A program made the position numbers and the translations under genes. From the NCBI GenBank assembly GCA_031277035.1, contig JAISLY010000025.1, forward strand, positions 32,068 to 96,067: DNA of 64,000 bases, in the 5' to 3' direction. Source of the DNA: Coriobacteriales bacterium. GTDB lineage: Bacteria > Actinomycetota > Coriobacteriia > Coriobacteriales > UBA8131. Below are positions 3,523 to 29,699 of this stretch, in pieces. Every line of letters begins with the position of its first letter. The stretch's first letter is position 1. The notes under the pieces were generated by a model. It was not told where the DNA came from. It did not search any database and was given only the letters and a program-made list of their open reading frames with translations.

Positions 3523-4293
3523 CTACCGGCGGCATTTCGCGATGATGCCGCGCGAGATGCCGGTCGCTCTCTCTATCTGGCGGATGGAAAAACCCTTGTC
3601 CCGCAGCAGACAAAGCAGGCGGTCGCGCTCCTTTTTGTCGGCAATCCCTACGAGTGCCACAGGCGCGGTGTCGCCAAGGGCTGCCTTGATTCCCGATAAC
3701 ACCTCGGCATCCGTCCTCAGCTTGCCTTCGGAGGGCATGCGCTCCGCACCGTCGAACACCTGGTGAAACGCACGAAACTCCGCAATCGCCTTCTTGTGGT
3801 CATCGGAGAACATGTCCAGCACCAGGCTCGTCTCCAAAAGCGCGTCGTTGCCCTTGAGGTAGCCGCGGTAGCTGCTCCAGCGGTATGCTCTGGCGTCCTT
3901 CGCGATGCCCGCCACCACGGGGTTTTGGTGGATATAGCGCACCACGGCAAGCAGGTAACGATCCCTGTCAACAGATTCGCTCTTGTAGCGGTTTGCCACC
4001 AGCGCGCCGCTGCGGGCGTATTTACGATTAAACCATCCGGCGTACTGGACAAGAACCCTGTGCATGAGTGCGCTGACGTTGCCAGGCGTGCCCTCGTGTA
4101 CCAGCAGGTGGACGTGGTTTCCCATCAGGCAGTAGGCATAGACGTCAAAGGGGACGGCGTCTTTTGTTGCAAAAAGCAGGTCGAGGAACTTCCTGTAGTC
4201 CGCATCCTCCTCAAACAGGTGACAGTGGTTCACCCCACGAAAGACGATATGGTAGATACCTGACGCACTGATCTGACGGGCGACCCTGGTCAT
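3523..4293 (-). CDS. Y1 (IS200/IS605-type, RAYT-like) transposase with C-terminal HTH-like tail
   Basis: IYHIVFRGVNHCHLF and YCLMGNHVHLLV (HUH-type motif), and RYIHQNP (catalytic Tyr region). The gene is flanked by inverted REP-like repeats. Confidence 0.8.
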   Translation of the reverse strand: MTRVARQISASGIYHIVFRGVNHCHLFEEDADYRKFLDLLFATKDAVPFDVYAYCLMGNHVHLLVHEGTPGNVSALMHRVLVQYAGWFNRKYARSGALVANRYKSESVDRDRYLLAVVRYIHQNPVVAGIAKDARAYRWSSYRGYLKGNDALLETSLVLDMFSDDHKKAIAEFRAFHQVFDGAERMPSEGKLRTDAEVLSGIKAALGDTAPVALVGIADKKERDRLLCLLRDKGFSIRQIERATGISRGIIAKCRR

Positions 4294-16295: not shown

Positions 16296-19208
16296 TCACC
16301 GTATATGTACCCTGCCGTTGCTTCCGTCCACCAAAACGGTGTCGCCGCTGCAGATGAGGCGCGTGGCGTTGCCGCAGCCGAGCACTGCAGGAATGCCATA
16401 CTCACGTGCGACTATGGCGCTGTGAGAAAGCGGGCCGCCTGTGTCTGAGACCACGGCGGCGGCAAGGGAGAACAGCGGCGTCCATGCCGGGTCGGTGTAG
16501 CGGCAGACCAGCACCTCTCCGTCCTGCATCAGCGGAAATTCATCCAGGGACAAAATCACCCGTGCACGCCCTCTCGCCATCCCCCGATTGCCGGAGGTTC
16601 CCCTGAGTGCGCCGGCCTCATCCGCCTTTGCACTGATCTCCATCTCGTTCCACAAGGCGCTGTTGACGACGTGGGTGGCCTGGCGCCGTTTGATGAGTGC
16701 TCGGCAGGCATCCGAATCATCAAGCCATATCCGGTCAAAAAGCTCCTCCATCATCAGGAAACGGATGTCGTCCTCGCTTAAAAAGGTCGCCGGGTTGCGT
16801 CTGGCCAACTCACGGACGAAACGCCGCATGAGGCCGTAGCAGGTTTCCAGAAGGTACAGGCTTTCCTCGCGGTTGACGTGGTAGGTTCTGAGCTGCTCTA
16901 TGCGCTCGCGCAGCCGTTTTGCCGCTCTGGGCCGAAACACCTCGTCAATCCTTTGCAGTATGCCGGCATACCTGCCCCCAGATGCCTCAGCGCCCGCCTT
17001 CGGCCCGCCACCAGCCGCCTCGCCACCAGCCGCCCCACCATCCGCCGTTGCACACGGCAGTTCTCCTGCCTCCGCGTACTCAGCGCCCGCCTTCGCTCCC
17101 CGCGCCTTCAGCGATATCGCGAGAAGGCGTTCGAGTGTCCTGGGGTCTTCGTTAAAGGAGGTCGATCCGAAGGGCAGGTAGCTGGCGGTTGACTTCCAGC
17201 CGAAGTCGTTGAGAAAGGCGGCGTATTCCTGCCGAAACCGAACGCGAGCATTTGTCGCCTCCACCTCTGCCTCCACCTCTGCCTGCTCCTGCACTCCCCT
17301 CCCTTCAGGTTTCTCAAGCGCCTGTGCCTGTGCCTGCGCCTCCACCTGCGCCTGTGCCAGCTCGGAGAGGCGCTCGTTCATGCAGGCGGTGAGGTAGGGT
17401 AACTCGACGAGCAGGTCGTATTCTGTCAGCCCCTTCCTGATTCTGCCAAACCGACCACCGAGCAGCTTGGACAGGATGACAAAGGGAAAGATGTTGTGAC
17501 GAAAGCGGATGTGTGCGACGACCCGAGATGCCTCCAGAAGCGCATCCAGCCTCTCAAGCAGCTGTTCTTCGCTCAAAGCCGTCACCTCCTCGGCCTCCAT
17601 GTCGTGCAGTTTCGCACGGATGGCGACAAAGTTCGTCGCCGTTGTTTTCTGATTATCCGCAAAGTCCAAAAGCCGTTTGAGCGTGCCGGGCAGCCGCATG
17701 ACGTTTGCATTAAGGCGCACCTTCTGCGGGGCGGGATACAGTTGCCCATCTGCATCGAAGTCAAACTCATCGCCCACCACAATGCCCAGTGTGGCAAAGG
17801 TCTGTGCCTTGGCGGCCTCCATAATTCTGAGCGGGACAAATTCAAGCGGATACAGAGGCTCGGGGCAATGTTCGATGAGATTGTTCATCATGGCGCGCTC
17901 TGCAGCGGCGTTGAGCCCTGAGCTTCGGCGATGTGGTGTGCGTGACCGTGCCTGCGACGACGACTGCGGCGACGGCGACTGCGCCAGCGGCGACGACTGC
18001 GGCGACGGCGACTGCGGCGACTGCGGCGACAACGACGGCGAGGACAACGAGGGCGGCGTCGCCTGTTGCGCAGGTGGCGAAAGCGTGGTGATGGCCCGCG
18101 ATTGCAAAATGAAAAGCCGTCCGCCTGCCAGTGCCCATTCGATGTCCTGGGGGCATCCGTAGTGGCGCTCTATCCCGGCAGCCAGGGCGACCAGGTCTTT
18201 GAGGGTGGGAGCGTCAAGGCAAAACTCACTTTGGAGTGCGGCGGGTACCGGTAGTGTCCTGGTCTGCGCAAGACGTGCGCCGCTCTCAACACCAGGGCCC
18301 TCGCTGGCGCCATCCGCGGCTGCGTCTTTATCCGTATGTCCGTCCGTATCCGCACTCCCATAGACGATCATCGTCTCCTTGCTGCCCAGATTTTGAGAGA
18401 TAACCGCGCCTGTTTTCTTGTCGCAGAGCCAGAAGTCGGGTGTTACATGACCCGACACGACAGACTCGCCCAGGCCAAAGGACGCGTTTATCATCATCCG
18501 GTCCGCATCCTGCGAGAGCGGATCGACGGTAAAAAGAACGCCCGACACATCGGCCTCTATCATCTTCTGTACGACCACTGCCATCGAGACAGAGCTCTCG
18601 CCAAAACCCGCCTCACGACGATAGGCAACAGCGCGCTCGCCATAAAGTGAGGCGTAACAGGCCCGTATCGCCTCAAGCAGGCCCTCCGGTGTCTGGACGT
18701 TTAAAAAGGTCTCCTGCTGACCGGCAAAACTGGCCTGTGGGAGGTCCTCTGCGGTGGCAGAGGAGCGGACGGCAACCCCGACACGGGCCTTTGCGCCCGC
18801 TTCGCGCGCGGCGGGCGAGGCAGGCGAGGCGGGTGCAGCTGGCGAGGCGGCCGACGCAGGCGCTGCAGGCGCGGCGGGCGAAGTGTTGATGAGTGCCTGG
18901 TACGCCTCCAGTATCTCCTCACGCAGTTCTGAGGGAAAGCGCCCGTTTAAGAGTCCTGTCCGCATTGTTGCCCCGTCTTCAGCCTGCGTCCCGTGGGTGG
19001 CCGTGGCGGTCTGCCTCGTTGCCGAGTGTTCGGCAGAAAGCTGGTTTTCTTCCAAAAACCATTCAAAAGCGGCGCTTGTGAGACAAAACCCGTCGGGCAC
19101 CGGAAACGAGGAGCGCCACAGGTTCCCAAGGCTGGCACCCTTGCCTCCCACTACCATCAAAGCATCTTCGGGTATCTCGTCAAAACGAAGAAGGGTCTTT
19201 GTTCTCAT
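16296..19208 (-). CDS. PEP-utilising enzyme family protein with rifampin-phosphotransferase-like architecture (N-terminal PPDK_N ATP-grasp, C-terminal swivel His domain)
   Basis: N-terminus VVGGKGASLGNL and C-terminus VSDTGGPLSHSAIVAREYGIPAVLGC. AAGGGAG RBS before ATG 19208. Several low-complexity inserts. Confidence 0.8.
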   Translation of the reverse strand: MRTKTLLRFDEIPEDALMVVGGKGASLGNLWRSSFPVPDGFCLTSAAFEWFLEENQLSAEHSATRQTATATHGTQAEDGATMRTGLLNGRFPSELREEILEAYQALINTSPAAPAAPASAASPAAPASPASPAAREAGAKARVGVAVRSSATAEDLPQASFAGQQETFLNVQTPEGLLEAIRACYASLYGERAVAYRREAGFGESSVSMAVVVQKMIEADVSGVLFTVDPLSQDADRMMINASFGLGESVVSGHVTPDFWLCDKKTGAVISQNLGSKETMIVYGSADTDGHTDKDAAADGASEGPGVESGARLAQTRTLPVPAALQSEFCLDAPTLKDLVALAAGIERHYGCPQDIEWALAGGRLFILQSRAITTLSPPAQQATPPSLSSPSLSPQSPQSPSPQSSPLAQSPSPQSSSQARSRTPHRRSSGLNAAAERAMMNNLIEHCPEPLYPLEFVPLRIMEAAKAQTFATLGIVVGDEFDFDADGQLYPAPQKVRLNANVMRLPGTLKRLLDFADNQKTTATNFVAIRAKLHDMEAEEVTALSEEQLLERLDALLEASRVVAHIRFRHNIFPFVILSKLLGGRFGRIRKGLTEYDLLVELPYLTACMNERLSELAQAQVEAQAQAQALEKPEGRGVQEQAEVEAEVEATNARVRFRQEYAAFLNDFGWKSTASYLPFGSTSFNEDPRTLERLLAISLKARGAKAGAEYAEAGELPCATADGGAAGGEAAGGGPKAGAEASGGRYAGILQRIDEVFRPRAAKRLRERIEQLRTYHVNREESLYLLETCYGLMRRFVRELARRNPATFLSEDDIRFLMMEELFDRIWLDDSDACRALIKRRQATHVVNSALWNEMEISAKADEAGALRGTSGNRGMARGRARVILSLDEFPLMQDGEVLVCRYTDPAWTPLFSLAAAVVSDTGGPLSHSAIVAREYGIPAVLGCGNATRLICSGDTVLVDGSNGRVHIR

Positions 19209-19381
19209 CTGGTCGACTCCCTTGACGGAGCTTGTTGGGATAAAAGTAAAAAGTTGCTTACTTTTAACAGTATAGATACAATAGGGGTGCATGTCAAAAG
19301 AAATTGAGTAATTACTCAATTTTAGGCAGGAATGCGCTTTGCTCAGAGTAATGTCGGACGATGTGACGGGGATGGACAGCT

Positions 19382-20077
19382 ATGGCATCTGAGGTAAAGA
19401 TGGTACAGAAACGCAGCTTTGAGACACGCGGCAAGATTATCGCCACGTCGATGGAGTTGATAGCGGAGATTGGCTACTTTGCCCTCACCACCAACGAAGT
19501 GGCGCGACGAGCCAAAGTATCCATCGGCTCGCTGTATTCTTACTTCTCAGACAAGAAAGATATTATGCTCGCCTGTATGGAGCAGTACCACGAACTGGTC
19601 AAAGCCAGTATCGATACTGACGACCTTGAACAGGCGGAGCAGCAGGGCAACGTCCGCGATACCGCCTCCAGCGCCGAGCGCGATACCGCCTCAACAACAG
19701 AGCGCGATGCTGCCTCAACAACAGAGCGCGATGAGGTGCTCGCCCTCTCCATCCGCAACGCCATAAAAAGCGTCTTTGCTGCCCACCGAATCATGCCGGG
19801 ATTTCATCGGGCGATGATGGCGGCCTGCCTGCAGGATGCAGACATCCGAGAGCTTGAGGCGCGACACAACGACGACAGCCGGCAGCGGATACTGAGCCTG
19901 TTGTTGCAGTGGCAGCAGATTCTTGTGCCGACGAACATCCCCCTGGCGGCGGATATGATCTATCTCCTGATAAGCGAGACGGTGCATGGGTACATGAATG
20001 GCACCATCGAGGGTGATGAGGAGCAGCTTGTCGATGAGTTGACTCGTATGGTGCGGGCCTATGTGCTGCCACGTTGA
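19382..20077 (+). CDS. TetR/AcrR-family transcriptional regulator
   Basis: RGKIIATSMELIAEIGYFALTTNEVARRAKVSIGSLYSYFSDKKDI. Divergent from the PEP-utilising enzyme gene. Confidence 0.85.
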   Translation: MASEVKMVQKRSFETRGKIIATSMELIAEIGYFALTTNEVARRAKVSIGSLYSYFSDKKDIMLACMEQYHELVKASIDTDDLEQAEQQGNVRDTASSAERDTASTTERDAASTTERDEVLALSIRNAIKSVFAAHRIMPGFHRAMMAACLQDADIRELEARHNDDSRQRILSLLLQWQQILVPTNIPLAADMIYLLISETVHGYMNGTIEGDEEQLVDELTRMVRAYVLPR

Positions 20078-22356: not shown

Positions 22357-22647
22357 GTAAAACTCACCCTCCAATATCAAATCTAATCTCGGGATAACTT
22401 TGCAATTCTACTGTATAGCCGCGCCCTCGACCAGATAAATCACGGGAAAGGAAGAGAGCGCAGAGGAAACGGCTTAAACGGAGCCAGAGAGTTGACAGAG
22501 GAAACTGGCCAAGAGGGCATGGGCTGAGGCGGCAGCGACTGAGAGGGCACTGGCTGAGAGTTGACAGAAGGCACTGGCCGAGAGGGCCCGTGCCCGCTGT
22601 GCTCTGCTATACTTGCTGTGCGCAGAGACCCGCAGGGGAGAGAGGGC

Positions 22648-24042
22648 ATGGGCATGTTGAAGCAGATACATCATCACATATGCTTACGCACAGGCAGGTC
22701 GAAGACCGGCGGCATGACGCTCATCGAGGTCATCACCGCGGCAGGTATCATCGCGCTGGTCTCGCTGGTGGTCATAAGCGCCTTTTCGACCTTTCTCAAC
22801 GCGCAGCGCCTGGCCTTTGAGAACAAGGCGGACGCCGAGGCCGTTGAGGCTCAGATTGCGACAGGCGAAGAGCCCTTTGAGAGTCTGCCGGGCGATCTTG
22901 AACTGAACGGCTATTCCCTGCCAGGCGACATTGAAACCTACACGGAGGGGCGGCGCTCCTACTCTGTGCTTGAGGGTACTGACCCTGTGGACGTATCGGT
23001 CCTGACCCTGTACTTTGGCGACGGAGCGAGCGTGTATGAGGGGCAGGGCCAGGTGTATGAGACCGGTTCGGCCGGCAACACGATGGAGTACCAGGTCACG
23101 GCAGACGGCCGCTACCTGCTGGAAGTCTGGGGTGCCAGGGGCGGGGGCGTCGACAAATCAGCTTCAAGTGGCGCAGGCTATGCAGGTGGTGGTAAGGGGG
23201 GTTACGCAGCCGGCGTTGTCAGTCTGCAAAAGAGTGATCTTCTAATTCTGTATGCGGGCGGGATTGGTTCTGCATACCAGACAGCGGGAGAGAAGATTGG
23301 CGGCTTCAACGGCGGCGGCAACCTCATGACAAACACCGAAGGTGGCGCAACCGGTGGCGGTGCCTCGGACATCCGCATCGGCACCGACAGCCTCGATGCC
23401 CGTATCATCGTTGCTGGGGGCGGCGGGGGCGGGGGGTTTACCCGTATCCCCTCCACCTATAGCCACACGCCGGGCGTCATCACGGGCGGAGCAGGTGGGG
23501 GTACGAGCGGTTTCAAGGGCGCACTATGCAGCGATAGCTGGAAAGTTTATGTGATGGGTCTTGGCGGAACGCAGTCCACCGGCGGATCCTTTGAGGGTCC
23601 ATCAGGGAACGCGAGCAGCTACAACAACGGAAGCGGCAACAACGGAGCCGGGTCAAGCTATCTTGCCACCAATGGTTCGTTTGGCCGAGGTGGCCAGGGA
23701 ACAGGTTTTAGTGCGGGCGGAGCAGGCGGAGGCGGAGGCTGGTATGGCGGTGGCGGCGGATGTATCAACGCGGCCGGCGGTGGCTCAGGCTGGGTCTTTA
23801 CCGAGACGGCCTACAACGCCTGGAACAACACGACGGATAAACCGCGCTACCTCTTGGACGATTTTGGCTCCCGGTACCACCTCTCCAACACTTCGCTCAT
23901 CGCCGGCAATGCCGCCCTGCCCGATCCTCTGGCCAGCACGGTCACCCCTGCTACGGAGGGGGGGGGGGGGCAGGTTGTCGGACAGATGATTACCGGTAAC
24001 GCCCGCGGCGGCTTTGTCCGCATCACCTACCTGGGAAACTGA
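22648..24042 (+). CDS. Prepilin-type N-terminal domain protein with glycine-rich (Gly_rich/PF12810-like) C-terminal region
   Basis: Class III signal KTGG|MTLIEVITAAGIIALVSLVV, with Glu at +5. Then WGARGGG...GGGKGGYAAG...LLILYAGGIGS...GGFNGGGN...GGGASDIRIG...RIIVAGGGGGGG. The start could be 22648 or 22654. Confidence 0.65.
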   Translation: MGMLKQIHHHICLRTGRSKTGGMTLIEVITAAGIIALVSLVVISAFSTFLNAQRLAFENKADAEAVEAQIATGEEPFESLPGDLELNGYSLPGDIETYTEGRRSYSVLEGTDPVDVSVLTLYFGDGASVYEGQGQVYETGSAGNTMEYQVTADGRYLLEVWGARGGGVDKSASSGAGYAGGGKGGYAAGVVSLQKSDLLILYAGGIGSAYQTAGEKIGGFNGGGNLMTNTEGGATGGGASDIRIGTDSLDARIIVAGGGGGGGFTRIPSTYSHTPGVITGGAGGGTSGFKGALCSDSWKVYVMGLGGTQSTGGSFEGPSGNASSYNNGSGNNGAGSSYLATNGSFGRGGQGTGFSAGGAGGGGGWYGGGGGCINAAGGGSGWVFTETAYNAWNNTTDKPRYLLDDFGSRYHLSNTSLIAGNAALPDPLASTVTPATEGGGGQVVGQMITGNARGGFVRITYLGN

Positions 24043-24050
24043 GAACGCGC

Positions 24051-24186
24051 GGTGTCAAACGGGGCGCAGGTCAGAAATGATACTGATACCCAGCGCAAAA
24101 TCACCCTGTTCGGTCCTGTTGAGACTCAGCAGCTCTGGAACAGCGTGCCGGACGCGCTCCATCATACCACGTCAACAGGTGCCAGA
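24051..24186 (-). pseudogene. Decayed hicAB copy (three collinear fragments of the intact locus at 26807..27316)
   Basis: 24051-24084 matches 26807-26840, 24091-24161 matches 27073-27143, and 24155-24186 matches 27284-27316. Most of hicA and the middle of hicB are deleted. Confidence 0.7.
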
Positions 24187-24265
24187 GGGGGTGACAGACT
24201 GTATGGAAAAGTTTTGATCACAGATGAGTAACACGCTGTCGAAAAGCGGGCTGTAGCACCTAGGT

Positions 24266-24312
24266 ACGGGTGCCAAGAGGCGCATAAGCTGACACTCGGC
24301 ACCCGTCATTTT
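24266..24312 (+). terminator. Hairpin followed by a T-run, downstream of the glycine-rich gene
   Basis: acgggtgcc (24266-24274) pairs with ggcacccgt (24298-24306) and is followed by cattttg. The 23-nt loop is long. Confidence 0.35.
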
Positions 24313-24515
24313 GCGTTCCGCAGAATCTATTTCTTCCGCGGGCATTTCTCATTATCGGATGATTTGCATTTCCGAGCCTCATTGCTTGAAATTTTTATGT
24401 TTTGAAGCTTGCAGATATTTGGTTTGTTTGTCCACACAGACTCACCTTCAAAGTATTTACATACTGACATGGCATTACCTCTTTTCATTGCAAAGAAGGT
24501 CACTATTGGAAAAAA

Positions 24516-25028
24516 TTAACAAGATATAGCTTCATTGCAGGCAAGCATAAAGGCTTTACTTTCAAAATCTTCCCACGATAACGGCTTCTCCCATCCCGGC
24601 AACCCGGTTTCTGGCAAACAATCAAAGATGGCAGATTTATAGATAGTCTCTTCAAGCACTGTGAATAGGCCCTCGAAAGCATCGCTAAGGACAAATGGTA
24701 GAGGCATCTTCATTCCTGCCATTAACCTCCAATCTGAGTCACTTTGCCCACACGAAGGCCAAGCGTACAAAAAAACATTGTTGGTACTGATATTGTCCGC
24801 CGCCTGCAAAAGCTCATTGTTCAGCTGAAGCCCTTGCCGAACAATAAAAGTAAAATTCACAGACCAGTTGTATGCAACGAGCCAGACCCCAATGTCGGTC
24901 ACAAAGAAACTCGGGAATCCACTTTGCGTAAGATCGAATCCAGTATGTCGCCCGCTAAAGTGCTTTTCGAGATTCCGTTGCACAGACATTGCCATTTGTC
25001 GACGCTGCTCAAACCTCTGATTATCCAT
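24516..25028 (-). CDS. Hypothetical protein (AT-rich island gene 3)
   Basis: 170-aa ORF with GAAGGAGAA RBS. Its composition matches the island. I recognise no motif. Confidence 0.6.
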   Translation of the reverse strand: MDNQRFEQRRQMAMSVQRNLEKHFSGRHTGFDLTQSGFPSFFVTDIGVWLVAYNWSVNFTFIVRQGLQLNNELLQAADNISTNNVFLYAWPSCGQSDSDWRLMAGMKMPLPFVLSDAFEGLFTVLEETIYKSAIFDCLPETGLPGWEKPLSWEDFESKAFMLACNEAISC

Positions 25029-25099
25029 CGGATTCTCCTTCAGATTTCCAGCTAAAAAGTTTACTGACGTATTAAAAAATTTATTACGCGATACCGGCG

Positions 25100-25459
25100 C
25101 TAGACCATTCTTTCAAAGGCATTCGACATTTTTACTGCTATTTTGCTGCTTGTCGATAACTTCGGATAATGTCGTGACGGTGCTATGAACGCACCCATTA
25201 AGGTAGTCAGTCTGCCTACGCCCCCAGGGCAGAAAAGCACCGAATGAGTAGTACCGGAACCAATTACTATTATACGTACTTCCCATTGTTGAAGATCGCG
25301 ATACATGATGAGATCAAGTTCCTGGTTCTCGTATCTCTTGCTTTCAGAACTTACTTGCACATCTGCCCAAAACTGCTTTGCTAGACCAGCAAGGGCACCG
25401 TCGACCTCTTGTATAGAACGGCCTTGAATTTCCTTTGTAATAACCTCTCCTGATGCCAT
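25100..25459 (-). CDS. Hypothetical protein (AT-rich island gene 2)
   Basis: 119-aa ORF with GAGAAGGGG RBS. I recognise no motif. Confidence 0.55.
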   Translation of the reverse strand: MASGEVITKEIQGRSIQEVDGALAGLAKQFWADVQVSSESKRYENQELDLIMYRDLQQWEVRIIVIGSGTTHSVLFCPGGVGRLTTLMGAFIAPSRHYPKLSTSSKIAVKMSNAFERMV

Positions 25460-25556
25460 TTCGAACCCCTTCTCTCAACCTTGCCCCTTCTTGCCTCTAT
25501 AAGATTGCGATTAGAATTACCAGTGTGAGATTTTTGGTACATCAATGTCTCCTGTA

Positions 25557-26000
25557 TTAGTGCCCATCCCATCCATAGCTCTTTGCTATTTCGAATATAT
25601 GATTAGCGACCTTTTGGTAAGGATGCTCTGGCAAATTATGTATTTCCATCATATTGTCAAATAAAGCCTGCTGATATCGTTTCTGCAGATAAATTGCCAA
25701 GTCTAAATTCTGATCCACTGAAAAAAGTTTATCGAATTCCCCATTTATCATTTGAGTCGTAAGGCTTTGTATCTGATCAAAGAGGCGCCAATCTCTGAGA
25801 GTCGTGAGAAGAAAAAGGAGTCGCATATTAAATACATACGGATCGTCGTTCCCTTTCTGTTGTTCTAACCAACCTATGACATCAAGAAAATATTTAACAT
25901 ACTGTTGCGTCGGAAAATCAGGGCTGTCAGAATAGCTGGGGTCGCTGTTTACCCTTTGAGATGTGTTGAAAACAAACTCGAGTTTCTCTTGGTTTTCCAT
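25557..26000 (-). CDS. Hypothetical protein (AT-rich island gene 1)
   Basis: 147 aa from MENQEKLEF, with a strong GGAGGAATAAT RBS before ATG 26000. I recognise no motif. Confidence 0.6.
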   Translation of the reverse strand: MENQEKLEFVFNTSQRVNSDPSYSDSPDFPTQQYVKYFLDVIGWLEQQKGNDDPYVFNMRLLFLLTTLRDWRLFDQIQSLTTQMINGEFDKLFSVDQNLDLAIYLQKRYQQALFDNMMEIHNLPEHPYQKVANHIFEIAKSYGWDGH

Positions 26001-26826
26001 ATTATTCCTCCATTGATACATTTTTTAGCATTTGCATTATAGTGTTGGCACAAATCATATTAGGATTCTATAAAAATGGTATTTTCATGTTCGCCCCCTT
26101 CCCTCAGTTTGACATCATTACTGAATGCCTAACGGTGATATGTGGGGGGTGGCAATCTCCGAAGCCTTTGTCTGACGACTGAATGCGGAGAAGGACATCC
26201 ACCCTTTAGTCGCCAAACTAATAAGTGACGCATCACGCCATTTATCGGACAGATGTCCTTCTACATACGTGATGCGAACTCTTTGTTGAATTCACTTATT
26301 AGTTTGGCATCTCATAATATACCACATCGTTTCCCATGCGATTGTGAGGATTAACGGATGTGGGAATTAACAGATGCGTTTTTATGCAAAACAGCGGACA
26401 ACTTACGTGCCCACTTTTGCTCAAAGCGGGCGAGGCGTGCGCCTTGATGTCAAGCCAATTATCGGCGGTCGAGAGCACGGTGTCAAAAACGGTGCGCTAT
26501 GCCTCCCCGACCTCCTCGATGTCGGTCTACTCAAGGTAGTCCGCCTCGACGTTCTTCGCGATAATGACAGTCCGCTGTCTGGCGCGTCGGTGCCTGCGGT
26601 GCTATTGAACAGCGTCCTCTTGTAGGTACCGTTAGACCCAACAAGCGCATAACGTCCGCGCTCGTTTATGCAAAAGACCACGTCTCTAAACAACGCGCAC
26701 GGCCCATACATAGGACTTGCTCAGCCCGTCAACCGTAAGAATTAGGATGAGACGTTATTGCAAAAAAGAGCAGGCTCGTTCCCACCGCTTTGCCCATGCA
26801 CATAGAGGTGTCAAACGGGGCGCAGG

Positions 26827-27021
26827 TCAGAAATGATACTTGATGCCGCTTCGCCTCATGATGCCATTTGCCGTATGTCGAGATTTAATCTTGTTATCGA
26901 CCGTGACGTTGACGCCTGAAATCGGACTGAACCAGATGTCGTGATCACCTTTCCCATGCCTGATAAACACGCAGCCATGCTCCCGCAGTTTATCGCGTAC
27001 CTTCTTCTCGTACTCCGCCAT
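26827..27021 (-). CDS. hicA: HicA-family mRNA interferase toxin
   Basis: 64 aa with KLREHGCVFIRHGKGDHDIWFSP (YcfA/HicA-like). Immediately downstream of the hicB-like gene. Confidence 0.8.
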   Translation of the reverse strand: MAEYEKKVRDKLREHGCVFIRHGKGDHDIWFSPISGVNVTVDNKIKSRHTANGIMRRSGIKYHF

Positions 27022-27033
27022 CAGAGCCTGCCA

Positions 27034-27255
27034 TCAGAGGGCAATATGTTCGTGTCGTTCGGAGTAGAAGTGCAGCGCAAAATCACCCTGTTCGGTTCTG
27101 TTGAGACTCAGCAGCTCTGGAACAGCGTGCCGGACGCGCTCCATAAGGGCGTCAAGGGAACCCGCCTCGAGCACGAGCCCCGGAACTTCGTCGCTGGTGG
27201 CAATCCAGACAGCGGCCTCGTTATCCCAGAAAAAACTCACCTTGTATTCGGGCAC
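27034..27255 (-). CDS. hicB: HicB-like antitoxin (DUF1902-type, no obvious DNA-binding domain)
   Basis: YKVSFFWDNEAAVWIATSDEVPGLVLEAGSLDALMERV. Confidence 0.7.
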   Translation of the reverse strand: MPEYKVSFFWDNEAAVWIATSDEVPGLVLEAGSLDALMERVRHAVPELLSLNRTEQGDFALHFYSERHEHIAL

Positions 27256-27417
27256 AGCACACCTCCTGACATCACGTGCCGTCGCGCTCCATCATACCAC
27301 GTCAACAGGTGCCAGGAAGGCGCAGGTCTCAGAGGGTTGCCGGAAGGGAGGAGTAACGCAGCAGGGACGCAGGTGTCAGGGGACGCAGGTGTCAGGGGAC
27401 GCCCCCCCCCTGGCAAC

Positions 27418-28662
27418 CTAGTCGACGATAAAGCGGTACAGCTCCTCTGAGAAATCCTCGCCTTTCATCAGCCGCGCGATTTCCTGCGCTCTTTGTCGGT
27501 ATGCGTTGTTGTCGAACAGCTCGCGAACCGCTGCCTTCAACCTGCCCTCGTTAAAGTCGCCGATGCGAAACCCCCGAAGGCCAGCTCCTGCCCTGTGGAC
27601 GAGAGCGCCCCACATCGGCTGGTCAAGGACATGCGGAATAGCCATCATCGCGCAGCCCGCCTTCAGCGAGGACTGCGTGGTCCCTGCCCCGCCGTGGTGG
27701 ATGGTCGCGTACATATGAGGGAGTATCCCGTCATAGGGCACCGAGCGAGTGAAGTGCACCAGCGACCGGTCGTACTGTGCAGGCTCTACAAGGCCTCCGC
27801 TGGAGCTGTTGATGACCGCAGGGATACCGCACTGCGCAAGCACCTGTAAAAACGTCGCCGTCTTGCCAACAGGGTCGGGGTTGAGCATGCTGCCAAAGGT
27901 GATGAAGAGAATCTTTTCGTGCGCATCGATGAAGTCCTGAAGCGCAGGCGGCGGCTGCCAGCCAGAGGCCTGGTCGCGCTCCCAGAACCCTGCGACCATC
28001 GTGTTGTCCGGCCAGGAGCTGGGCTTTGGGAAAAGCGTGGGAGAGACCACGTAGACGTTCTTCGCCGCTGTAAGCGCACCGAGCAGCCGTTGTCTCGAAA
28101 GAGGGGTCTTGGAGTACCGCTCGGCGGCAGGCATGAAGGTCGAGGCAATCCAGGAGTTAGCGACGCGATAGGTCAGGGGGTTCAGGATGCCAAGACTCCT
28201 GCTAAAGCCGACGCTTGGATAGCCTGGCACCGTGTGGAGGAAGTGCGGCACCGTGGAGAGCAGGATGGCACGCCCACCCGTGTTGAGGGACCAGATGAGC
28301 GGGTAGGTCGCCTGGTTATGGAAGATGATGCAATCCGGTCGCACCTGCTCGACGGCTTCGCATTGCAAATCCAGCATGTCGGTGAGGCCACGCGTCCTTA
28401 CCGCTACCTCCCGTTTTGCCAAAAACCGCTTGATGGCGCTGCTGGTGCCACCCATGGCAAAGCGGCCAATCCCGCCTTCCAGCAGATCGATGTAGCTGGT
28501 ACCCAGCGAAAAGAAGGAGAAGCCAGACGCTTCGGCAAGGCCACGGTACTGTTCGGGAAAGGCACAGAAGGCATCCTCGCCGCGCGCTCTGAGCATCATT
28601 CCGACGCCGAGGAACGGCTCACAGTCCCCACGTGTGCCGACCGACATCAACAGTATCCTCAT
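27418..28662 (-). CDS. GT1-family (MGT/UDP-glycosyltransferase-like) glycosyltransferase
   Basis: MRILLMSVGTRGDCEPFLGVG at the N-terminus and HHGGAGTTQSSLKAGCAMMAIPHVLDQPMWG at the C-terminus. The 75-codon upstream extension in the track ORF is unlikely to be translated. Confidence 0.8.
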   Translation of the reverse strand: MRILLMSVGTRGDCEPFLGVGMMLRARGEDAFCAFPEQYRGLAEASGFSFFSLGTSYIDLLEGGIGRFAMGGTSSAIKRFLAKREVAVRTRGLTDMLDLQCEAVEQVRPDCIIFHNQATYPLIWSLNTGGRAILLSTVPHFLHTVPGYPSVGFSRSLGILNPLTYRVANSWIASTFMPAAERYSKTPLSRQRLLGALTAAKNVYVVSPTLFPKPSSWPDNTMVAGFWERDQASGWQPPPALQDFIDAHEKILFITFGSMLNPDPVGKTATFLQVLAQCGIPAVINSSSGGLVEPAQYDRSLVHFTRSVPYDGILPHMYATIHHGGAGTTQSSLKAGCAMMAIPHVLDQPMWGALVHRAGAGLRGFRIGDFNEGRLKAAVRELFDNNAYRQRAQEIARLMKGEDFSEELYRFIVD

Positions 28663-28772: not shown

Positions 28773-29699
28773 TTACTCCAGCGCGGCGCGTATGGGGGAA
28801 AGCCAGGCAGAAAGATCGGCGGCAGCCGTGGCGGGCGAAGCGCCGATGCGTTGCACGATGGCGCTGCCGATGATCACCCCGTCGCACAGCGCAGCCAGCT
28901 CACGGGCCTGCTTGGGCGTATGCACGCCAAACCCAACGGCAATCGGCACGTCACTGACCGCCCGCACCGCCGCGATAATCGGCCTGAGATCGGTCGTGAT
29001 ACTCTCGCGCACGCCCGTGACGCCCAGCGAGGAGACCAGATAGAGAAAGCCGCGCGCCTCGCGGGCTATTCTGGCAACCCGCGCTTCGGAGGTCGGCGCG
29101 AGCATGGAGATCAGCTCAAGGCCATGCGCACGCACAAAGGGCTCCATCTCCCCCTTCTCCTCAAAGGGCAGATCCGGGACGATAATGCCATCGACCCCCG
29201 CCTGCTCACAGTCTGCAAAAAAGGCTTCGTAGCCGTAGTGAAAGACCGGGTTGAGATAGGTCATGAAGACCAGGGGCAGCTGGGTACGCGCACGCAGACG
29301 CCGCGCCAGCGCGATGCAGTCGCCTATCGTTGTGCCCGATGCCAGCGCGCGCAGACTGGCCTGCTGGATGATAGGCCCCTCGGCAATGGGGTCGGAGAAG
29401 GGGATGCCAATCTCGATAAGATCGACGCCGGCCTTCTCCAGAGCGGCTACATATTCCTCGGTACGCGCAAGCGAGGGGTCGCCCGCCGTGAGAAAGGCAA
29501 TGAGCGCCTTGTGCTCGGCAAAGGCGCCCGCTATTCGAGAAGATGCTGGTGTGACGGGGGCGCCGGGGGCGCCTGGTGTGCCCGTTGCGCCTGGTGTGCC
29601 TGGTGTGCCTGGTGTGCCTGGTGTGTCCGTTGCGCCTGGGGCGTCTGGTGTGCCTGGTGCGCCTGGTGTGCCTGGTGTGCCGTTTGCCACACTACTCAT
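28773..29699 (-). CDS. trpA: Tryptophan synthase alpha chain with a roughly 45-aa G/T/P-rich N-terminal extension
   Basis: [27 protein letters not shown] and [13 protein letters not shown] 29699 overlaps the trpB stop. Confidence 0.9.

Follow-up and report, generated by a model that had tools for sequence, protein, structure and literature searches.

The subject of this study is a small islet of atypical DNA carried by a metagenome-assembled genome (MAG) of a Coriobacteriales bacterium. The sequence analysed, named here the window, is a stretch of 64,000 nucleotides (64 kb) from the 112,687-bp contig JAISLY010000025.1; all positions refer to the first letter of this stretch. The islet spans positions 24186 to 26806 and is flanked on each side by a direct copy of a hicBA toxin–antitoxin (TA) unit, intact at one end and decayed at the other. 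It is compositionally foreign. The GC content of segment 24200–26400 is 0.425 while the one of all other 2.2-kb segments of the window is 0.606 ± 0.029 (z = −6.3), a deficit of 18 points relative to the surroundings. Segments of 400 nt within 24200–26400 have a GC content of 0.39–0.46 as compared to ~0.58–0.66 in the flanks; the drop sets in from ~0.61–0.64, and the content recovers beyond 26400. The bin 25–26 kb is the minimum (0.416) among the 1-kb bins of the window, and the bins beyond 24–27 kb all have values of at least 0.51. The GC content at third codon positions (GC3) of the three islet genes is also low (0.41, 0.40 and 0.48 for genes A, B and C, respectively) when compared to host genes (0.68–0.75). 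A first-pass annotation of the window had described an AT-rich island of atypical composition from about 24.2 to 26.8 kb. Its atypical character is borne out between 24200 and 26400, but the last part of the segment is not AT-rich (GC 0.55 for 26400–26800 and likewise for 26401–26806).

Three co-oriented open reading frames (ORFs) of the minus strand occupy the AT-rich part. Gene A (25557–26000; 147 amino acids (aa)), gene B (25100–25459; 119 aa) and gene C (24516–25028; 170 aa) correspond to LBO07_03560, _03565 and _03570 of the MAG. Their ATG codons are preceded, 6–8 nt ahead, by the Shine-Dalgarno sites GGAGGA, AAGGGG and AAGGAG, respectively, confirming the gene set and the translation signals reported at first pass. 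Gene A has an alternative start at an upstream ATG without Shine-Dalgarno site, which would extend its product to 154 aa. Genes A, B and C are most likely real genes because of their Shine-Dalgarno sites, because three ATG-initiated ORFs of at least 119 aa did not turn up in any of 2000 shuffled versions of the island (mean of 0.04 such ORFs per shuffle), and because gene C has relatives (see below). The gene A product is acidic (pI 4.7), with a high content of Ser, Pro and Asp in its 35 N-terminal residues. Beyond the end of gene C, a candidate fourth gene of the same strand (24327–24470; 47 aa) has an AGAGGT sequence 6 nt before its ATG. Its putative product (MSVCKYFEGES...) is basic (pI 9.4), carries four Cys and matches DUF1540 weakly, below the cut-off (E = 0.027). 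The MAG annotation does not list this ORF among the proteins, and its run of accessions leaves no slot for it. The islet would carry an operon coding for three, perhaps four, small cytoplasmic proteins.

No family match was found for genes A, B and C in Pfam, NCBIfam, PADLOC or PHROG, in line with the initial remark that they could not be assigned to any family. Pfam hits accepted up to E ≤ 1 were noise only (Ric8 and DUF6955, both below cut-off). A word-seeded search of 5.8 billion clusters retrieved only the proteins themselves, all of them singletons, and comparison by sequence with the PDB gave nothing meaningful. Plasmids and phages searched by tblastn and blastn contained no relative (gene B had only chance-level hits with E 0.4), and scans of viral contigs for gene A, gene B and the gene C family yielded no match. 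The exhaustive HMMER search of 1.8 billion representative proteins was carried out for gene C, genes A and B being searched by the word-seeded method. By the searches made, genes A, B and C appear to be orphans. Note that TrpB, TrpF and the glycosyltransferase of the same genome likewise are singletons at 90% clustering, which implies that the host lineage was sampled once.

The intact hicBA unit has 509 bp (26807–27315, minus strand) and is composed of a promoter-like element, a hicB-like DUF1902 gene (27034–27255; 73 aa) and hicA (26827–27021; 64 aa). The hicB-like gene comes first, preceded by an extended −10-like sequence (TGGTATGAT), and is separated by a gap of 12 nt from hicA, after which the unit has a trailer of 20 nt. 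The antitoxin-like protein matches DUF1902 (PF08972) with 79.4 bits. HicA scores 25.3 bits against PF07927, whose Pfam cut-off is 27, and matches PHROG 353, annotated as toxin, with E = 8.7e-12. A terminator-like hairpin with a T-run is found just downstream of hicA on the same strand (26763–26786), outside the duplicated unit. The unit resembles HicAB type II TA systems by the association of a putative HicA-like toxin with a DUF1902 (HicB N-domain-like) antitoxin and by its own putative promoter. It differs from them by the antitoxin gene being the first one and by the 73-aa antitoxin, which shows no DNA-binding domain. Only the flanks of the islet bear this likeness to HicAB; genes A, B and C have no relationship with it.

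The decayed hicBA copy is found at the other end of the islet, also on the minus strand (24051–24185), and 138 of the 139 bases that it shares with 26807–27315 are identical. Three blocks are conserved: 24051–24084 corresponds to 26807–26840 (100%), 24091–24162 to 27073–27144 (71/72) and 24153–24185 to 27283–27315 (100%). The remnant retains the last few codons of hicA and the 20 nt downstream, an internal hicB piece of 72 nt and a 33-nt segment of the hicB promoter. It is the 509-bp unit minus two internal deletions of ~232 and ~138 bp, the second one bounded by 10-nt direct repeats (CGCGCTCCAT). No additional hicBA copy was found within the 64-kb window. That the island is bounded by directly repeated hicAB-derived sequence had been recognized by the first-pass annotation, which took it as a sign of foreign DNA acquired by recombination at a TA locus. 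The base composition and the exact position of the islet between the two hicBA copies support this proposal.

The most economical route for the acquisition would be a single homologous (Campbell-type) crossover between a resident hicBA unit and an identical one carried by a circular or circularised DNA of ~3.1 kb, whose outcome is the arrangement hicBA–insert–hicBA. The islet would in this manner have entered the chromosome together with a second 509-bp hicBA copy. This route is suggested because direct copies bracket the insert and homology stops exactly at the insert. One of the two copies would later have been disabled by the two deletions, one of them via slippage between the 10-nt repeats, a loss that fits redundancy. 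Campbell-type single-crossover integration is known from suicide plasmids and from some integrated plasmids. The locus is similar to such cases by the direct repeats of a shared segment that bracket the insert, whose ends are the ends of homology. It is unlike them by the lack of a recognisable replicon or selectable function on the insert and by the erosion of one repeat.

The hicBA family has features that bear on how the duplication might have arisen. The hicB–hicA pair recurs in 11 of 13 metagenome loci (48–73% identity), in contigs whose GC content ranges from 0.41 to 0.66 and that have no other gene in common with the present locus. The hicA homologues (48–73% identical) always adjoin a hicB-like gene. 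Direct repeats bracket hicBA in 2 of the 9 relative loci scanned for repeats: 41 nt, 83% identical, in locus L012 (156–196 and 683–723), and 54 nt, 89% identical, in locus L016 (736–789 and 1288–1341). Short repeats are also present beyond the intact unit of the islet (27319–27402, plus strand). The 10-mer GGCGCAGGTC occurs at 27319–27328, 26819–26828 and 24063–24072, thus near both cassette ends, and is related to a 16-nt tandem repeat (GGGACGCAGGTGTCAG) found 2.4 times at 27364–27402. Across the 64 kb, the 8-mer core of the GGCGCAGGTC motif shows no significant excess. Because the pair recurs in 11 contigs of very different GC content and repeats flank it, the hicBA family looks like a portable cassette, and the data hint at its movement as a repeat-flanked unit. 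A run of nine C (27402–27410) follows directly the stop codon of the adjacent glycosyltransferase gene.

Those repeats, together with the absence of a replication or integration gene from the insert, could also be accommodated by other routes to the same structure: insertion of foreign DNA between two hicBA copies that an earlier tandem duplication had produced, illegitimate recombination, facilitated by homology, of a linear fragment anchored in hicBA, or site-specific movement of the cassette at the short repeats beside it. We consider such routes unlikely, though they deserve attention in view of the GGCGCAGGTC copies at both cassette ends, the related tandem repeat alongside and the repeats that flank hicBA in L012 and L016. 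One copy of the 10-mer lies 12 nt into the duplicated unit and the second one 3 nt past the end of the unit; this offset implies that the short repeats do not define the ends of the duplication. There is no recombinase gene nearby, and the enrichment of the 8-mer core is not significant. The sole transposase-like gene of the window (Y1_Tnp; 3523–4293) has no sequence in common with the locus. Mobilisation by this IS200-like Y1 transposase gene was ruled out, neither common sequence nor hairpin being found. A single crossover between two hicBA units is retained here as the proposed route.

The insert delivered between the two hicBA copies is a mosaic composed of a dead ABC-F fragment, an AT-rich region of 400 nt with promoter-like elements and a very stable hairpin, and the orphan operon. 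The DNA on the 5′ side of the operon had been annotated as a non-coding leader of ~800 bp. This is valid for 26001–26400, an AT-rich (GC 0.41) non-coding region on the 5′ side of gene A, but not for ~26400–26745 (minus strand; GC 0.55), which reads as a frameshifted pseudogene fragment of an ABC-F ATPase that includes the start of the nucleotide-binding domain. Three-frame translation of the fragment displays two frameshifts and two in-frame stops, and its Walker A motif is degenerate (GSNGTYKRT). When reconstructed across frames it matches PF00005 with 27.1 bits (E = 7e-6), one frame only giving E = 6.5e-4 against ABC_tran; the best protein match is EttA (E = 2.3e-12), followed by YbiT, ExpZ and PoxtA. 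Within the pseudogene, the minus strand carries a near-consensus, promoter-like TTGACA-17-GATAAT sequence (26486–26458; 11 of 12 positions) aimed at the genes of the islet. It might be a source of read-through transcription or else be fortuitous; the hairpin that follows it is ordinary (z = −1.1). At the opposite end of the insert, the left junction segment (24186–24326, minus strand) has a GC content of 0.525 and contains a small hairpin (24308–24326) that is terminator-like on the plus strand.

The AT-rich 5′ region contains a perfect nested palindrome of 97 nt (26212–26308) formed by an outer stem of 17 bp, whose arms are 100% complementary, an inner stem of 9–10 bp and a 4-bp tip. Its RNA form has a folding energy of −51.7 kcal/mol (z = −5.5) and none of 200 shuffles folds as well. 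The palindrome has no match in Rfam and is absent from the viral contigs scanned. A role as intrinsic terminator was ruled out by the lack of a T-run after it. Two sequences read in this region, TATAAT (~26037–26042) and the extended −10-like TGGTATATT (~26314–26322), the latter directly upstream of the palindrome, are candidate promoters of the operon.

The presence of a dead gene and of an eroded hicBA copy raises the question whether the operon itself is decaying. The insert would then be the remnant of a transfer that is heading for deletion, with ORFs that are intact but non-functional in this host and possibly silenced as AT-rich xenogeneic DNA. Besides the ABC-F fragment found in the same insert and the deletions already suffered by one hicBA copy, the orphan character of all three proteins and a codon usage remote from the one of the host (GC3 0.40–0.48 versus ~0.7) speak for this explanation. 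However, three ORFs of 119–170 codons remain open in DNA with 42% GC, a situation not reproduced in the 2000 shuffles, each of them retains a good Shine-Dalgarno site, and gene C belongs to a real, though tiny, protein family. The test of ORF openness is weak, since the near-identity of the hicBA copies may reflect a recent event, too early for decay. Such a state of decay is on the whole rather improbable, and we retain a horizontally acquired operon of intact genes as the preferred reading.

An array of co-oriented, small and AT-richer orphan genes next to a TA cassette, with short repeats at the ends, is also reminiscent of integron arrays and of Xer-dependent "dif modules", in both of which small orphan genes move along with TA cassettes. 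The ends of the palindrome arms (GCCAAAC / GTTTGGC) are one base off the attC R″/R′ consensus. The palindrome lacks the bulged bases and the unpaired spacer of attC as it pairs perfectly. No inverted repeats or hairpin sites were found in the spaces between genes A and B or genes B and C, and no integron integrase was detected among the window proteins scanned. An integron cassette array, a cluster of attC sites lacking integron-integrases (CALIN) or an attC site was rejected in view of the missing inter-gene hairpins and of the perfectly paired stem.

The islet is embedded in core genes of metabolism. To its left are found the genes for PPDK, a TetR regulator, an H+-pyrophosphatase and a pilin-like glycine-rich protein, and to its right those for a glycosyltransferase and the entire trp operon; more distant genes include infB, truB and ribF. 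No integrase, tRNA or defence gene adjoins the islet. An integrase-mediated island is not indicated either, since neither the islet nor the DNA next to it carries a recombinase ORF and there is no tRNA or other Rfam family in 23000–28500 (Rfam, E ≤ 1). The locus is analogous to the AT-rich xenogeneic islets of GC-rich Actinobacteria, considering its 18-point GC deficit and its orphan genes amid core genes. In those bacteria, AT-rich xenogeneic islets are targets of Lsr2-type silencing.

Since the sequence is a MAG contig known from a single record, we asked whether the DNA of a low-GC organism might have been joined by metagenome assembly at the short hicBA-derived repeats. The 18-point difference in GC content and the repeats bounding the insert would be in line with such an artefact. 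But both flanks belong to the same GC-rich genome, so that two precise mis-joins would be required, and the remnant repeats, only 33–72 nt long, follow the layout of one particular deletion derivative of the intact unit. Furthermore, there is a gradual passage into the insert through the hicA terminator and the ABC-F fragment, whose GC content is 0.55. We regard an assembly artefact as highly improbable and the islet as a genuine part of the chromosome.

Gene C is the islet gene for which relatives were found. The exhaustive HMMER search identified two remote relatives, P0004 (E = 3e-6) and P0005 (E = 5e-4), which are close to gene C in length and share with it a core of the type ~"VWLS.GADD..W....G.KVP..WL..DTL". 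This family of three members has no match in Pfam (PF10722 included) and no profile match in the PDB, and a metagenome scan with the gene C alignment retrieved nothing. P0004 is preceded by ~500 bp of AT-rich non-coding DNA and followed by a gene for a secreted or membrane protein. P0005 is found at a contig end, with 174 bp of upstream sequence, and is convergent with a gene coding for a 1019-aa TIR-domain protein. No homologue of gene A or B is present in the P0004 and P0005 contigs. The first-pass annotation had proposed to search for co-occurrence of the three genes elsewhere: all three are singletons in 5.8 billion clusters and P0004 stands alone, for which reason the triad, judged from these short contigs, does not seem to be conserved as a unit. 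A Cys-rich ORF of 34 aa that has an AAGGAGG site comes after P0005 (L002 175–825, 963–5815; also L003–L005), which is convergent with a 598-aa protein in addition to the TIR-domain protein. Four independent assemblies all break 36–175 nt upstream of P0005, which suggests that a repeat is located there.

The gene C product has a pI of 4.65, close to the one of its relatives (5.0–5.1), and no hydrophobic or membrane segment; it is predicted to be cytoplasmic. The AlphaFold model obtained from the single sequence was unusable (predicted local distance difference test (pLDDT) 37). AlphaFold2 run with the three-sequence alignment gave a pLDDT of 62.4, with values of 63–82 in the core blocks, and a predicted template modelling score (pTM) of 0.56. 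The model has topology α-β-β-β-α-β-β-α and low confidence in the 40 C-terminal residues. The fold class was anticipated from the order of secondary-structure elements ahead of the Foldseek run. Ranks 1–10 of the Foldseek search of the PDB all have the YbjN/class I type III secretion system (T3SS) chaperone fold, with E 8e-4 to 1e-2 (YbjN 6vu7, the AvrPphF ORF1 chaperone 1s28, AmyR 5fr7/5frk, CesT 5z38 and STM2138 3epu). The best of them is YbjN 6vu7 (E 8e-4; template modelling (TM) score of 0.58 normalised to the target). ExsC 3kxy, VecA 9uwz, SpcU, SycN-YscB and DR_1245 4h5b rank lower, mixed with unrelated matches, while a Foldseek search of viral structures gave nothing significant. The model makes it probable that gene C has the YbjN/class I T3SS chaperone fold.

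The comparison with members of this "TY-chaperone" fold (YbjN 6vu7, Erwinia AmyR 5fr7, Deinococcus DR_1245 4h5b, 1s28, CesT, ExsC) reveals common traits, namely a length of ~170 aa, an acidic and predicted cytoplasmic protein and the α-β-β-β-α-β-β-α order. The differences are the lack of detectable sequence or profile similarity, the extra 40 C-terminal residues and a family size of three known members. Proteins with this fold are alike in structure but not in sequence (PMC5398634). The known ones are dimers that grip extended segments of partner proteins, the role of the family is peptide binding, and YbjN-type members are also present in the absence of any secretion system (PMC5398634; PMC3575483). 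By analogy of fold, homodimerisation and partner binding might be expected for the gene C product as well. It could bind and hold or regulate a partner, plausibly the co-transcribed product of gene A or gene B. The host, however, is an actinobacterium, and type III secretion is not known in this group.

The first-pass annotation had put forward immunity or defence as the function of the islet, such as orphan immunity genes of polymorphic toxins or a small anti-phage system next to the TA module. The position beside hicBA, the foreign composition and the small acidic proteins would suit this proposal, as would the TIR-domain protein adjoining the gene C relative P0005 and the report of T3SS/YbjN-fold chaperones in NAD/ADP-ribose conflict systems (PMC9503650). 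It is nevertheless quite unlikely. PADLOC-DB v2 has no match for A, B or C at E ≤ 1, its sole hit being a chance-level one of DpdD to HicB, and Pfam, NCBIfam and PHROG are equally blank, described immunity families (Imm, SUKH and similar) included in the Pfam search. No gene for a toxin, nuclease, ATPase or effector-like protein is found within the islet or next to it: the segment 22–29 kb lacks any toxin-domain ORF and the upstream neighbour of the operon is the ABC-F fragment. The locus is not placed in a defence island or mobile hotspot, hicBA being the only conflict-type neighbour amid the trp operon, H+-pyrophosphatase and glycosyltransferase genes. The triad is not seen elsewhere, P0004 is a lone gene with 500 bp of non-coding DNA ahead of it, and the association with a TIR-domain gene is an isolated case in which that gene converges with P0005 and does not share an operon with it. 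A defence or immunity label is unsupported and should not be attached to the locus on present evidence. The locus lacks the features by which a known defence system, toxin–immunity pair, integron array or integrase-borne island was looked for and resembles an ordinary xenogeneic islet of orphan genes.

A different type of conflict module, small and new, might also be imagined, in which gene C restrains an effector- or toxin-like product of gene A or B and the whole spreads by using hicBA as homology anchor. In such a module the perfect 97-nt hairpin, placed where the transcript would begin, could be a control element or a DNA-level processing site. We consider this scenario very doubtful.

The reading that we favour, with somewhat better than even confidence, is that of a horizontally acquired islet that came in with a second hicBA copy, probably by Campbell-type integration, and that carries an accessory operon with a small, acidic peptide-binding adaptor as its last full-size product. 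The operon would be a strain-specific accessory module rather than a recognised defence, immunity or housekeeping system. The data show the foreign composition, the structure of the genes and repeats, the pseudogene and the orphan status directly, and the fold match with moderate confidence; we infer the recombination route, the expression of the operon and the partner-binding role of gene C. Several observations count against this reading. Relatives of genes A and B were sought by the word-seeded search only. The insert is devoid of mobility genes such as those for an integrase or a Rep protein, which leaves the proposed circular donor without visible means of independent existence, and neither an empty site nor a donor sequence was found; a genome scan with the flanking glycosyltransferase retrieved only a Clostridiales gene with 46% identity. 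The assignment of gene C is based on a moderate model from three sequences, with Foldseek E values of 1e-3 to 1e-1 and TM-scores of 0.5–0.6. Comparison of the gene C family with Escherichia coli YbjN by hhalign gave a probability of 0.2% and PF10722 was not detected, so that the link to YbjN would exist at the level of the fold only.

Some further features were identified in the surroundings of the islet. The pilin-like glycine-rich protein encoded at its left (22561–24042; 493 aa) combines a weak type IV pilin-like N-terminal methylation motif (E = 0.011) with a glycine-rich domain of the ALK/LTK type that is strongly supported (PF12810; E = 5e-34), an unusual pairing for an actinobacterial MAG. 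The 3′ part of its gene has a run of 13 G (23958–23970) coding for GGGG that could be a tract for phase variation by slipped-strand mispairing or a weak spot of sequencing or assembly. A 15-nt tandem repeat is found just upstream of the gene (22512–22560). Farther to the left, the divergent intergenic region between the PPDK and TetR regulator genes has a second, smaller GC dip (0.46–0.49; 19000–19600). At the trpB–trpA junction, a 9-nt unit is repeated ~15 times (29546–29681; alternatively a 45-nt unit 2.8 times) and encodes a collagen-like GTPGAPG stretch in an ORF that is upstream of, and in frame with, trpA. At 256 aa, the protein encoded by 3523–4293, whose domain (PF01797; E = 2e-12) is that of IS200-like Y1 transposases, exceeds the typical length of IS200 TnpA and may be of the type associated with repetitive extragenic palindromic (REP) sequences.

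The islet genes have been seen in one uncultured lineage, and neither of the two implications of the favoured reading alters current understanding. If this reading is true, the locus would provide a natural example of a TA cassette acting as a recombination handle for the import of unrelated DNA into a core region of the chromosome, and the YbjN/secretion-chaperone fold would gain, in a Gram-positive gut bacterium, a very divergent branch of three members, namely gene C and its two relatives.

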